This document shows positions 9,001-15,000 of a DNA stretch of 64,000 nt, in pieces. Position numbers: made by a program. Origin of the DNA: Escherichia coli (lineage in GTDB: Bacteria; Pseudomonadota; Gammaproteobacteria; Enterobacterales; Enterobacteriaceae); NCBI RefSeq assembly GCF_029227855.1, contig NZ_CP074357.1. The stretch is one strand, 5' to 3'. Position 1 is the first letter of the stretch, and each line of letters opens with the position of its first letter.

Positions 9001-12000
9001 TGTTTGTCGGTTGCCTGTTTCCAGGCATTGATGATCGTTTTACTGGAATGTTCATGAGTTTTATTGTCGGTTGTCTATCGTGGTATATCACCAAGCCAAA
9101 ACCGCAAAAGGCTGAGGTCGCGTAAGCGGCCTTTTTTACGTCTCTCGTTTAATTCCTCGCCATTCTGTCCAGAAATAGTATTGCGGCTAATCAAGCCAAT
9201 TCCTACGTCTTTTCGCTGTTGCACGATCTAAAAGAAAATATGGGAAAATTTCATGAAAGTATGGTACTAAAGGGTCTTTAATTCCTTTATCTTGTTCCTT
9301 CAACTGCACAGTATCTCGTAAAAACCAACAAGCCGGTTGTTTAAAAAACGCTCTTAGCGTAGGATGTTTTCCATTTTCCAAGTGGAACCCAAGTACGATG
9401 CCCGCGAAAAAGACAGCCCTCTTATGAAGAGGGCTGTTATCTGATATAGGCTTGTTATGGTCTCACTCTTGATTAATCAGGTGTATGTGCAACCTTGGTG
9501 CACACAATCGATTATGCAGCTTGATGATCTGAAGTGTTACCGGAAGTATCTTCGGTTCGTTTTTTGTTTGTGATGGATTCACTTTTATCTCGCAAGGCTG
9601 AGTCTATGACGTTAAACACCTTTTCCCACCGAGAAATCCAACCGCATATAGGTTGAACACGACATTTTTCCAGGAAGAAATTTAATAAGTTAGTTTTTTT
9701 ATTATCTTGCACTTTGAATGGTTCAATTACATCATCGGCATCAACAGATTTTCCTCCGATAAACCACGACGGATGGGTTTCCATTGCGTCAGAAATGAAA
9801 TCGTCAGGGAAGAGGCCTTCAATAGCAAAACCACTTCTTACAGAAATATAGTCTTTATTTGACTCAAATCTAATTTGTTTTTTACCAAAGTAGCTTTGTA
9901 ATCTGGTTCTTTCTTTGACCCCAGCTTCATCACCGTCAAAAACAGATATTACGGGGACATCTTTAGAAATAAACTCGTAGCACCCTTTCAAGAATCCCCC
10001 AAGTTGACTGACTCCACCAAACTCATCAACTTTAGCACTCCTCAGAAAAGGCCATCTGTTCTTAAACTCATCATCTTCAGATGTCAATTTCAATATTGAT
10101 TCTATATATTGTTTGTCGGTGATACCTTCAACGAAAACTGCACTACTTGATATGTTAAAGAAATCAGAAAATCTGACCCCAAGATTTTCTCTTATGCTTG
10201 CAACTGCATTAAATCTTTTTTCATGCTTTTTATCTTTTGTAACACCGGCGTCATCTTTATATAACTCAATGATCTTACTTGGCTCATCACTGACAAATGA
10301 TAAGGAATGAGTTGTAATAAGAACATAAGCAACATCCATCAGTGATTTGAAAATGTGATTACATGACCGGCCTAATGAGGGATGCAAGAAAGACTCAGGC
10401 TCCTCAACCATCCAAATCGTTTTCTTACCTAGAGTAAGTTTTCTCTCTGAAATAGATTTAAATGAAGAAAATAAAGATAAGCATTGTAGCCCCATACCTT
10501 TACTCGATATCACATTCTCAATAGTATCTTTTATTGAAACCTCAAAGCGACCAAATAACTCATCAAGAGATGGCGGAGCTTTAATAATAAAGCTACAGTC
10601 ATCTATACCGCTTAGAATCATTTCATTTGTTATCTTTTCAGATACTTCCAACAGTTTATCATGAATCACTTGAACCGATGTTTTCATGGCTGAAGCTACT
10701 TCACTCCTAACATATGGAACTAATAGATTATGATATATATCATCAATACTTTTTGACGATGGTATATACACACACTCAAAACTAGAAAGTATTTTTTCTA
10801 TGAACCTTCTTTCAACAGATGTATACATGGAGGAAGTTACTTCAGGTTTCCTCTTGTAACCTTTAAAGACAGTGTAAAAGTAATTGTTTTTATTAGATAT
10901 TGTCAGATGTACGGTCACTTCGTTTTGAGGTGACTTTAACCTGGAGTCATCAATCATGTTAAACAGCTGCAAATATCTATCTCTCAAACTTAGCTTTCTG
11001 CCTCTTGATTGAGTTGGTTTTGATTCTTGTTGTTTAGAGCTGCCATCATCAAATGAAATAGAATTACTAGGCTCTTCTTGCTCCCCTAAAACACCAAGTT
11101 CAATAATCGAGTCATCATCGTCATCATCATCGTCTTGGCTCAAATCCTCAGAGACATCATCTAGCTCACTTTCAGAAAAAGTAAATCTTACAGCAAAACT
11201 AGTTTGTCCTTGCTTAACACCATGTGGCTTATCTTTTTCATAGTCATATAAGTCAGGATTAAATTTTCCTTCAAAAAAAACCCTCATAGCTTTTAATAGG
11301 TTTGTTTTACCACTGTTGTTTTGCCCAACAATGGTTAATCCATTAAAGTTATCAGAGGATATCTCCCCTGAAATAGACCTATACTGAGAAACTTTAAATG
11401 ATACTATTTCCATTTTTCTTCCTACGATAGAATATTGCTCGGATTATCGACATTTTTTCCCAAGGCTTTAACTGTCTTTCGCTACTTGGATAAATGGCTC
11501 TTCCTCCACTGTTCTGCTTTATTTTCGCCAGAAAGCCCACCATGCATGTTGTTTGTCCTGAAGTGCTGCTTTATCCTGAAGCAATTCAGCACTCACTGCC
11601 CCCTGAAGCACAGAAACGGCGTTTCTCGCGGCATTGCGACAGGAATCAATAACCTCTGGTTCGTTGGGCTTTCTGAGCAGGATAAATTGCGATACTTTGG
11701 ACTGAGTATCAAAAGCATAGATTCGCAATTCAGGGGAGGATGTCAGGCTTACAATATTATGCAACCGCATATAATTGGTGTAGTCCTTGCTACTTGGATC
11801 ACATGATTCATAAAGATATTTCTGCATTAGCGTTTGCGATGAAGAAAGAAAATCTATATAGCGGTCAGTTTTTTTATCTATATCCCGCAGTCGCTGAGCT
11901 ATTGCATCTTTTCTTATTTCGTGGCAGTGTGTTAATTTCAGTGTAATCCAGCCACCAACAATGGTGATTAATGCACCCAGCCCAATTTTAACGGCATTAT

Positions 12001-15000
12001 CAGCCACATCTACCCACTCAGTTGCCATCTGTTACGTGTTCTTCCTGTGATGATCATGGTCGCTAGTATAATTCTCCGGCTGACTGGACATACAGCATTT
12101 TCTGTCCAAGATTAATAACCTCGAACTGCAACTACAATGCCGCAGATGATGCAAAGGGGGAGCCCGCAGAATTCGGAAAAAATCGTACGCTAAGGTTTTC
12201 CGGGCATCCGTAAGGGCCGAAACTTCCCGTCTTCCAGTCTGCGGCTCTGCCGCCAGACGTAATCGCCGGTTAGGTTGATGTGCTCCCAGCCCAGCGGCGA
12301 CAGGAATTGCAGCAGCTCGCCGTCCACCGGCTTGCCGGCCTCGACCAACCCCTGGGTGGCGCGTTCCAGGTACACCGTGTTCCACAGCACGATAGCCGCC
12401 GTCACCAGGTTGAGGCCGCTGGCCCGGTAGCGCTGCTGCTCGAAGCTCCGATCCCTGATTTCCCCAAGGCGGTTGAAGAACACCGCCCTGGCCAGCGAGT
12501 TGCGCGCCTCACCTTTGTTCAGGCCGGCATGCACGCGGCGGCGCAGTTCAACACTTTGCAGCCAGTCCAGGATGAACAGCGTGCGCTCGATCCGGCCCAG
12601 CTCGCGCAGGGCCACGGCCAGTCCGTTCTGGCGCGGGTAGCTGCCGAGCTTGCGCAGCATCAGCGAGGCGGTGACGGTGCCCTGCTTGATCGAGCTGGCC
12701 AGGCGCAGGATGTCGTCCCAGTGGGCACGCACGTGCTTGATGTTCAGGGTGCCGCCGATCAGCGGGCGCAACGTCGGGTAGGCTTGCACGCCCTGCGGCA
12801 CGTACAGCTTGGTTTCGCCGAGGTCGCGGATGCGCGGCGCGAAGCGGAAGCCTAGCAGGTGCATCAGGGCAAAGACGTGATCGGTGAAGCCGGCCGTGTC
12901 GGTGTAGTGCTCCTCGATCCGCAGGTCGGACTCGTGGTACAGCAGGCCGTCGAGCACATAGGTGGAATCGCGGACGCCGACATTCACCACGCGGGTGCTG
13001 AACGGGGCACTGTTGCAAATAGTCGGTGGTGATAAACTTATCATCCCCTTTTGCTGATGGAGCTGCACATGAACCCATTCAAAGGCCGGCATTTTCAGCG
13101 TGACATCATTCTGTGGGCCGTACGCTGGTACTGCAAATACGGCATCAGTTACCGTGAGCTGCAGGAGATGCTGGCTGAACGCGGAGTGAATGTCGATCAC
13201 TCCACGATTTACCGCTGGGTTCAGCGTTATGCGCCTGAAATGGAAAAACGGCTGCGCTGGTACTGGCGTAACCCTTCCGATCTTTGCCCGTGGCACATGG
13301 ATGAAACCTACGTGAAGGTCAATGGCCGCTGGGCGTATCTGTACCGGGCCGTCGACAGCCGGGGCCGCACTGTCGATTTTTATCTCTCCTCCCGTCGTAA
13401 CAGCAAAGCTGCATACCGGTTTCTGGGTAAAATCCTCAACAACGTGAAGAAGTGGCAGATCCCGCGATTCATCAACACGGATAAAGCGCCCGCCTATGGT
13501 CGCGCGCTTGCTCTGCTCAAACGCGAAGGCCGGTGCCCGTCTGACGTTGAACACCGACAGATTAAGTACCGGAACAACGTGATTGAATGCGATCATGGCA
13601 AACTGAAACGGATAATCGGCGCCACGCTGGGATTTAAATCCATGAAGACGGCTTACGCCACCATCAAAGGTATTGAGGTGATGCGTGCACTACGCAAAGG
13701 CCAGGCCTCAGCATTTTATTATGGTGATCCCCTGGGCGAAATGCGCCTGGTAAGCAGAGTTTTTGAAATGTAAGGCCTTTGAATAAGACAAAAGGCTGCC
13801 TCATCGCTAACTTTGCAACAGTGCCCGATTTATTCAACAAATCCACGTTGTGTCTCAAAATCTCTGATGTTACATTGCACAAGATAAAAATATATCATCA
13901 TGAACAATAAAACTGTCTGCTTACATAAACAGTAATACAAGGGGTGTTATGAGCCATATTCAACGGGAAACGTCTTGCTCGAGGCCGCGATTAAATTCCA
14001 ACCTGGATGCTGATTTATATGGGTATAAATGGGCTCGCGATAATGTCGGGCAATCAGGTGCGACAATCTATCGATTGTATGGGAAGCCCGATGCGCCAGA
14101 GTTGTTTCTGAAACATGGCAAAGGTAGCGTTGCCAATGATGTTACAGATGAGATGGTCAGACTAAACTGGCTGACGGCATTTATGCCTCTTCCGACCATC
14201 AAGCATTTTATCCGTACTCCTGATGATGCATGGTTACTCACCACTGCGCTCCCCGGGAAAACAGCATTCCAGGTATTAGAAGAATATCCTGATTCAGGTG
14301 AAAATATTGTTGATGCGCTGGCAGCGTTCCTGCGCCGGTTGCATTCGATTCCTGTTAGTAATTGTCCTTTTAACAGCGATCGCGTATTTCGTCTCGCTCA
14401 GGCGCAATCACGAATGAATAACGGTTTGGTTGATGCGAGTGATTTTGATGACGAGCGTAATGGCTGGCCTGTTGAACAAGTCTGGAAAGAAATGCATAAG
14501 CTTTTGCCATTCTCACCGGATTCAGTCGTCACTCATGGTGATTTCTCACTTGATAACCTTATTTTTGACGAGGGGAAATTAATAGGTTGTATTGATGTTG
14601 GACGAGTCGGAATCGCAGACCGATACCAGGATCTTGCCATCCTATGGAACTGCCTCGGTGAATTTTCTCCTTCATTACAGAAACGGCTTTTTCAAAAATA
14701 TGGTATTGATAATCCTGATATGAATAAATTGCAGTTTCATTTGATGCTCGATGAGTTTTTCTGATAGTTAGTCTTTGTAGAGACACAAACCTGAAATTCC
14801 GGACACCGCGCTTCAGGACATCTCCCTGGACGCCGATATCTGGCAGTATCCGGACGGTACTATCGAACGCCGGGCCAACGGTACTCCCCTGCCCTTTATG
14901 ACTGACGACCGGCTATTTCACCCACGCACTTCTCCATGAAATTTAGCATCGTCGCGGTTAATGTCGAAAATTTGCCACCTGACGTGGTTGGCATCGAGGG

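Follow-up and report, generated by a model that had tools for sequence, protein, structure and literature searches.

A solitary OLD-family ATPase–Toprim gene on enterobacterial plasmids and the apparently unrelated membrane-protein cassette beside it

The 64,000-nucleotide stretch of Escherichia coli DNA analyzed here (NCBI RefSeq assembly GCF_029227855.1, contig NZ_CP074357.1; hereafter the window) carries a minus-strand gene at 9512..11413 for a 633-residue protein (WP_065311127, RefSeq name "AAA family ATPase") that we identify, with high confidence, as a solitary OLD-family ATPase–Toprim protein. By the context-based definition of the field, this old-like gene, hereafter old, is a Class 1 OLD. 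Directly upstream on the same strand, 105 nucleotides (nt) away, lies a gene at 11519..12028 whose product is a helical protein of 169 residues with an N-terminal anchor (WP_065311128, RefSeq name "peptidase M14"); this gene in all likelihood is independent of old and not its partner. Taken as a whole, we consider it fairly probable that the locus joins a Class 1 OLD, probably a single-gene anti-phage system, to an unrelated cassette. An earlier note on this DNA had pointed to both open reading frames (ORFs), to four motifs in the 633-residue translation (G30-QNNSGK-T37, V336-EEPE340, V426-FVEGITDKQY436, and V491-FDGDEAG498), to a low GC content, to a poly-Asp tract, and to a flanking Tn3-family inverted repeat; all are present as described, the GC fraction being 0.34–0.37 over 9500–11500 versus 0.45–0.62 in the flanks. 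The ratio of nonsynonymous to synonymous substitution rates (dN/dS) is 0.06 for old and 0.16–0.26 for the 169-residue gene, and this purifying selection indicates that both are real genes rather than chance ORFs.

The assignment to the OLD family, which the earlier note had made from motifs, is supported in agreement by Pfam, PADLOC, a profile search of the PDB, Foldseek, and the conserved residues. The Pfam model AAA_15 spans residues 1–374 (E value 5e-18), no Toprim model is matched, and NCBIfam returns nothing above its cut-offs. PADLOC profiles for OLD, AriA, and GajA, of the kind that the earlier note had proposed as a check, all match: Old is the best defense model (7e-19), AriA matches the ATPase half only (6e-18), and many GajA models match at approximately 1e-14, some of them extending to residue 519. 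A profile built from a family of 56 sequences retrieves from the PDB the Class 1 OLD of Thermus scotoductus (TsOLD; 6P74; 1e-18), GajA (3e-13), and the OLD protein of retron Eco8 (4e-8), in alignments that extend through the first Toprim motif (lvEGksD versus LLVEGYGD). An AlphaFold2 model of the full-length protein has a predicted local distance difference test (pLDDT) score of 86, and the best 14 Foldseek matches to it are all members of the OLD family (6P74, GajA, and Eco8 OLD; E values 1.5e-16 to 4.7e-11), followed by the heads of SMC proteins from approximately 1e-10. TsOLD is the best solved-structure match by both routes, with a Foldseek E value of 1.5e-16. Querying the literature with the accession of the protein turned up no publication on it.

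The N-terminal half has the features expected of an OLD-family ATPase, namely an ABC/SMC-type head with a P-loop lysine, an acidic Walker B motif, and an H-loop. The Walker A motif, G30-Q-N-N-S-G-K36-T37 (11303..11326, minus strand), aligns with GPNGAGKT of TsOLD, and its G30, N32, G35, and K36 are invariant in the 56 homologues. The Walker B-like motif W334-M-V-E-E-P-E340 (10394..10414, minus strand) aligns with IIEEPEMYLHP of TsOLD; W334, E337, E338, P339, E340, and the H-loop residue H369 are likewise invariant, and H344, the equivalent of the D-loop, is kept in at least 90% of the homologues. Roles for the TsOLD residues E276, H283, and H310 have been described (PMC7049728). The predicted model also contains a long helical pair (residues 223–242 and 244–267; pLDDT 74–84) inside the ATPase. 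The protein resembles TsOLD in being a single polypeptide of ATPase, predicted helical insertion, and Toprim domain encoded by a stand-alone gene, and in having the P-loop Lys, the Walker B Glu of the EEPE motif, the His of the LHP motif, the H-loop His, and the pattern E-x3-D ... DxD ... E.

That pattern lies in the C-terminal half, on the same polypeptide as the ATPase, in a predicted Toprim nuclease domain (residues ~420–560; 9734..10156, minus strand). E429, D433, D493, D495, and E532 do not vary among the 56 homologues, and 54 of these also have K573. The pattern corresponds to E377/D381/D431/D433/E480 of TsOLD, and, with the lysine, to the set listed in a comparison of the Eco2 Toprim with the Class 2 OLD 6NK8 (E374/D460/D462, D378/S513/E515, and K562); on this basis K573 may be the equivalent of the catalytic K562. 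K573 lies in a C-terminal helical extension (residues 570–625; 9539..9706, minus strand) composed of helices 570–586 and 594–625 (pLDDT >90). The 633-residue protein is structurally no close copy of TsOLD, and in having such an extension and its conserved Lys it is like Class 2 proteins. The two-metal set (Glu, Asp at +4, DxD, Ser-x-Glu, and Lys) can be recognized, though Ala530 occupies the position of the Ser.

Several observations on this half of the protein weigh against the Toprim assignment. The Pfam model OLD-like_TOPRIM is significant neither for the 633-residue protein nor for any of the 56 homologues. A profile of the C-terminal domain compared with the PDB gave only sub-threshold alignments (E ≥0.19), most of them to Toprim proteins and centered on the DxD motif. 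The serine S478 that provides the sixth metal ligand in TsOLD is replaced by Ala530, and at this position the 56 homologues have Ala in 30 cases, Ser in 12, and Pro in 12. E532 and K573 were mapped onto known catalytic residues by motif order and spacing. The Toprim assignment is thus one that rests on a predicted structure and on motif conservation. Because sequence comparison gave the C-terminal domain such weak support, residues 398–633 were modeled separately, yielding a pLDDT of 89.5 and a predicted template modeling (pTM) score of 0.83. The entries that remain in the search list for this domain are generic CheY-like receiver domains, PADLOC matches the domain by itself to RT-Toprim_I-C (E value 0.003), and a phmmer search of the PDB found no match. 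The earlier note had held that its C-terminal Toprim nuclease would be refuted if profile searches placed the domain elsewhere; the model and the conserved residues point instead to a Toprim fold.

Placement within the OLD family is decided by gene context. The earlier note had seen no UvrD-like helicase next to old, and neither the ORFs of the window nor a tblastn search for helicases reveals a helicase gene adjoining it. Neither a retron reverse transcriptase ORF nor a retron RNA is found near old among the window ORFs or in an Rfam scan, and the nuclease is not split from the ATPase. The homologues were sought among 8000 scored candidates, of which 292 were hits at E ≤0.001. The nearest of these, at 60–72% identity, are from Edwardsiella, Serratia, and Lonsdalea; the remainder, at approximately 33% identity, come from several phyla and are often named "ATP-dependent nuclease" or "OLD family". 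The Edwardsiella homologue (72%) is a lone gene in a lambdoid prophage, with an N antiterminator on one side and a cI-like repressor on the other, and homologues of 60% identity adjoin RusA-like genes in prophage contigs, in moron positions. A chromosomal homologue in Serratia (62%) is flanked by metabolic genes, with no hidden ORF upstream. Relatives in Vibrio cholerae (32%) occur in a layout resembling integron cassettes, with small genes on the same strand, DUF645, acetyltransferases, and ccdAB. Solitary homologues are also present in Pseudomonas and Dickeya, and a close homologue (91% nucleotide and 95% amino-acid identity) stands by itself beside rep on the 5.8-kb plasmid Col(Ye4449). In these loci no helicase, reverse transcriptase, or 169-residue neighbor accompanies a homologue, and the gene is solitary in at least six contexts. 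Because helicase, reverse transcriptase, and split-nuclease partners are absent and the homologues stand alone, the gene falls into Class 1, one of the two alternatives offered in the earlier note.

The other OLD classes differ from this arrangement. Gabija GajA (Class 2) is encoded in tandem with the helicase gene gajB, of which there is no counterpart at this locus or in the 20 OLD-bearing loci collected. Retron Eco8 OLD (Class 3) is accompanied by a reverse transcriptase and an msr/msd noncoding RNA, and the 633-residue protein scores 29.3 bits against the NCBIfam model retron_eff_Eco8 (NF038234), far below the cut-off of 250. In PARIS (Class 4) the ATPase and Toprim functions are divided between AriA and AriB, whereas here they are fused. 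Within Class 1, the protein resembles P2 Old, Vc OLD, and YbjD/OldB in being a single-gene ATPase–Toprim protein carried on mobile elements or islands, and DUF2813, the Pfam family of YbjD-type proteins, matches it weakly. Arguably, the clade forms a subclade of its own within a known kind. The V. cholerae relative was compared with Vc OLD as described in the literature and is a different protein, as its Walker A lysine is K36 and that of Vc OLD is K48. A tblastn search of deposited phage genomes, P2 included, at E ≤1e-5 matched only two Vibrio elements.

The second alternative in the earlier note, an undescribed two-gene OLD variant, is not sustained by the comparative data. In such a system the 169-residue protein might sense envelope or infection stress, or tether and inhibit the OLD protein, and the pair would constitute a new OLD class. 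The arrangement in the window is suggestive, as the genes share a strand, lie 105 nt apart with no predicted terminator in the stretch between them (11414–11509), and are found as an intact pair in ~172 plasmids and in 86/5426 complete E. coli genomes. However, the homology of the DNA breaks between the two genes. By blastn, 9407–11509 of the window is 91% identical to the Col(Ye4449) plasmid, which has no 169-residue gene, whereas 11510–12108 matches IncFII plasmids at 91% identity and a P2-like Serratia prophage at 81%, neither of which has old. The switch occurs approximately 10 nt past the stop codon of the 169-residue gene, which therefore forms an independent cassette spanning ~11510–12108. 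The ~96 nt preceding old (11414..11509, minus strand; junction ~11509/11510) share homology with the rep gene of Col(Ye4449) at its 3' end, and old has accordingly probably lost its original upstream context on joining the 169-residue cassette.

The distributions of the two genes lead to the same conclusion. Among 48 loci collected, 20 have old only and 26 have the 169-residue gene only; the two occur together only in the IncX1/IncHI2 lineage, so that no independent pairing was observed. All paired copies are at least 98.7% identical, consistent with a single event, and the families do not co-occur across diverged homologues. In PLSDB, 198 plasmids have any old-like match (181 of them at ≥90% identity) and the pair is present in 172, whereas a homologue of the 169-residue protein is encoded on 632 plasmids, ~459 of which lack old; the 173 with homologues at ≥95% identity represent the paired lineage. 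Given also the solitary Col(Ye4449) copy and the lone 72%-identical prophage gene, we regard a true two-gene system as highly improbable. We posit instead that recombination placed the 169-residue cassette before old once, on an IncX1 plasmid.

Since no terminator is predicted between the genes and one follows old, the two genes may be co-transcribed at this locus, although old in all likelihood does not depend on its neighbor. The latter is an intrinsic-terminator-like hairpin at 9413..9437 (minus strand), ~75 nt past the old stop codon, with an 11-bp stem that includes six GC pairs and is followed by a T-run. A scan for promoters yielded no excess of matches over chance, and none is assigned. 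Co-transcription would be a by-product of the fusion rather than proof of a functional link. The missing terminator does count against independence to the extent that it makes a functional link within this lineage formally possible; that membrane protein and OLD became a working pair when they were recently fused into one transcription unit is an idea to which we attach scarcely any weight.

The 169-residue protein is of interest apart from old. The N-terminal transmembrane helix proposed in the earlier note is in keeping with its hydropathy, as residues 12–30 have a mean Kyte–Doolittle value of 1.77, which fits one helix. Neither the protein nor its family matches any entry in Pfam (including searches with 40 members), NCBIfam, PADLOC, PHROG, or the PDB, and the protein has no match in deposited phage genomes. 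The name "peptidase M14", applied to this family throughout RefSeq, was considered and set aside as an unsupported mis-annotation, as no M14 carboxypeptidase domain is matched. An exhaustive profile search yielded 262 family representatives at the 50% clustering level; members are ~150–185 residues long, N-terminally anchored, and share the conserved motif W-[IV]-x-V-x-D-x-A-V-K-I-G-L-G. Homologues, alone in each case, are encoded on IncF plasmids near repA and toxin–antitoxin genes, on Klebsiella plasmids beside resolvase and Abi_2/FRG genes, and on a conjugative element close to a SIR2 gene. In P2-like prophages they occupy two variable loci, one in the interval between the portal gene Q and gpA, beside HicAB, and the other in the interval between gpV and gpS; we take these to correspond to the old/tin and orf30 positions of P2. 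Members of the family are thus a repeated feature of the variable regions of both plasmids and P2-like prophages, where their neighbors are often defense-type genes (HicAB, Abi_2, SIR2, or YaaC). One could tentatively regard its members as undescribed single-gene defense or superinfection-exclusion factors of mobile elements, with the locus a small island of independent single-gene systems (the 169-residue protein and the Class 1 OLD, joined on IncX1 plasmids by a PDC-S28 helicase), but we think this a minority possibility. Besides removing the false lead of a two-gene OLD variant, the analysis flags a mis-annotated, uncharacterized family that recurs in the variable regions of mobile elements.

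For old itself, we infer that an anti-phage role is somewhat favored. Anti-phage phenotypes have been reported in the literature for three Class 1 OLDs (P2 Old, Vc OLD, and YbjD), with differing triggers and substrates. P2 Old cleaves the anticodon stem of tRNA and is activated by ATP, and Vc OLD is a nickase whose defense activity requires the Walker A, Walker B, and DxD motifs. By analogy with these proteins and YbjD/OldB, the expected mode of action would be that of an ATP-dependent nuclease causing abortive infection, and the protein would be a single-gene, mobile-element-borne effector of this type. Based on the precedents of P2 Old, Vc OLD, and TsOLD, we hypothesize that the protein would dimerize via the helical insertion in the ATPase head, and that ATP binding or hydrolysis at the dimeric ABC heads would control the access of nucleic acid to a two-metal Toprim site, with E429, D493, and D495 coordinating metal A, D433 and E532 coordinating metal B, and K573 completing the site. 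An infection cue would then activate cleavage of phage or host DNA or RNA, and the infection would be aborted. By analogy with TsOLD and Vc OLD the substrate could be DNA, and by analogy with P2 Old and the Eco2 Toprim protein it could be tRNA or other RNA. A point against this scheme comes from YbjD, in which the Toprim domain was not required to obtain the anti-phage phenotype; the nuclease need therefore not be the effector.

The plasmid setting of old invites a different explanation, in which the protein serves the plasmid itself through plasmid–plasmid competition, restriction of incoming DNA, or addiction or stability. On Col(Ye4449), old makes up a third of the replicon and the rep coding sequence overlaps its start by 20 nt; the close relatives in the plasmid collection are on IncX1, IncHI2, and Col plasmids; and Toprim-bearing Wadjet restricts plasmids. 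The relatives of 60–72% identity, however, occupy moron positions of prophages or belong to a chromosome, and the distant ones are in apparent V. cholerae integron cassettes, settings at odds with a role specific to plasmids; the characterized Class 1 OLDs act on phages. We consider a plasmid-serving function unlikely. Still less likely is a non-defense cellular role, for example in DNA repair or the cell cycle as for the archaeal OLD-family protein Cran1, or the status of a decaying passenger. OLD-family proteins with non-defense roles do exist, Cran1 being one, and a few plasmid copies of the locus are disrupted (one by an IS1 insertion and one by division of old into three pieces), but the dN/dS of 0.06, the fully intact catalytic residues, and a patchy distribution linked to mobile elements rather than to core genomes all argue otherwise.

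An anti-phage role would be of some consequence, as no OLD class has received less study than Class 1, the present clade stands far from P2 Old, Vc OLD, and YbjD, and its members are spread widely over IncHI2 and IncX1 resistance plasmids of clinical relevance in addition to a tiny Col plasmid. If phage defense is indeed its function, resistance plasmids could confer one more benefit on their hosts. The locus is also present in E. coli ATCC 25922, a standard reference strain, with the gene pair at 99.2% identity on a 24-kb plasmid (NZ_CP009074, 5336–7852), which offers easy experimental access.

The history of the segment can be read in part from its flanks. A 3.4-kb stretch is 100% identical to many plasmids of 230–315 kb from Salmonella, E. 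coli, Enterobacter, and Shigella, and the one inspected in detail is IncHI2A. The resistance region that contains the gene pair also has IS26, aph(3')-Ia, and ramA, together with part of a Tn3-family tnpA. The segment 9064–12157 shares 98.7% identity with IncX1 plasmids, among them pCFSAN002069_02, and the homology ends at a 38-bp Tn3-family terminal inverted repeat (approximately 12157..12194, plus strand; repeat arm 12175–12194), read from the sequence 129 bp upstream of the start of the 169-residue gene. This repeat is of the Tn21/Tn1721 type. From these flanks we infer the route, in which an IncX1 fragment (9064–12157) would have come to sit in an IncHI2 resistance region, ending at the Tn3-family repeat and with IS26 copies around it.

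A probable relic of a second Tn3-family inverted repeat is present at 9353–9390; it matches the 12157–12194 repeat at 27/38 positions, including 18/20 at the TAAG end, and faces away from old. Since the segment containing old and the 169-residue gene is flanked by two outward-facing transposon ends, it is not a transposon passenger. The relic lies 17 nt from the start of homology to the Col plasmid at 9407. The ~60 bp past old at 9407–9467, including the terminator hairpin, are 84–92% identical to many otherwise unrelated 2.5–6-kb Col-type plasmids found in Klebsiella, Yersinia, Enterobacter, and E. coli, and this sharing fits a small-plasmid origin of the old cassette. As for the two disrupted copies, IS1 has inserted within the locus on the E. 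coli plasmid NZ_JBXSFF010000002.1, and on the Escherichia fergusonii plasmid NZ_CP040810.1, where old is in three pieces, the adjoining 169-residue gene is intact.

In addition to the domains described above, the 633-residue protein has an acidic insert at approximately residues 84–143 (10985..11164, minus strand) that is predicted to be disordered; residues 102–135 have pLDDT values <50 in the AlphaFold2 model. The insert includes the poly-Asp tract D94–D101 (nt 11111–11134), which has eight Asp residues in the window and nine in the Col-plasmid copy, and the underlying run of GAT and GAC codons could change in length via slippage. The ~60-residue insert is confined to the enterobacterial subclade, unlike the 550–562-residue homologues, which are without it, and among relatives of 43–95% identity it is hypervariable in both sequence and length. 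We speculate that it could act as an autoinhibitory mimic of nucleic acid.

On the other side of the terminator, a locus resembling the DinQ type I toxin lies at 8372–8879. It consists of an AgrB antisense RNA (8372–8459, minus strand; Rfam RF02891, 68.8 bits versus a gathering score of 40) and DqlB, a hydrophobic peptide of 31 residues (8784–8879, plus strand). A 48-nt direct repeat (8414–8461 and 8659–8706) suggests a second agr-like copy. The slot beyond dqlB varies between plasmids. On the IncX1 plasmid pCFSAN002069_02 it holds a gene (5313–7841 of the collected locus) for an 843-residue DEAD/DEAH helicase with a full-length match to PDC-S28, a single-gene candidate in PADLOC (1053 bits). 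We considered a Gabija-like pairing of this helicase with the OLD protein and rejected it, as the helicase is a PDC-S28 protein encoded 1.3 kb away, beyond the type I toxin locus, and neither the window nor any of the other loci has it. The plasmid of ATCC 25922 has in the same slot (3619–9602 of the collected locus) an apparent microcin C-type cluster encoding ThiF-like, MFS, methyltransferase, GNAT, and S66 peptidase proteins. The slot of the window is occupied by DNA derived from ramA and romA. A hybrid ORF at 6129–6896, in which the first ~85 residues are those of the IS26 transposase and the rest diverge, marks a truncated IS26, and ramA and a fragment of a romA-like gene of the metallo-beta-lactamase fold (6914–7675) adjoin it; the ramA and romA-like sequence is probably chromosomal DNA captured by IS26.

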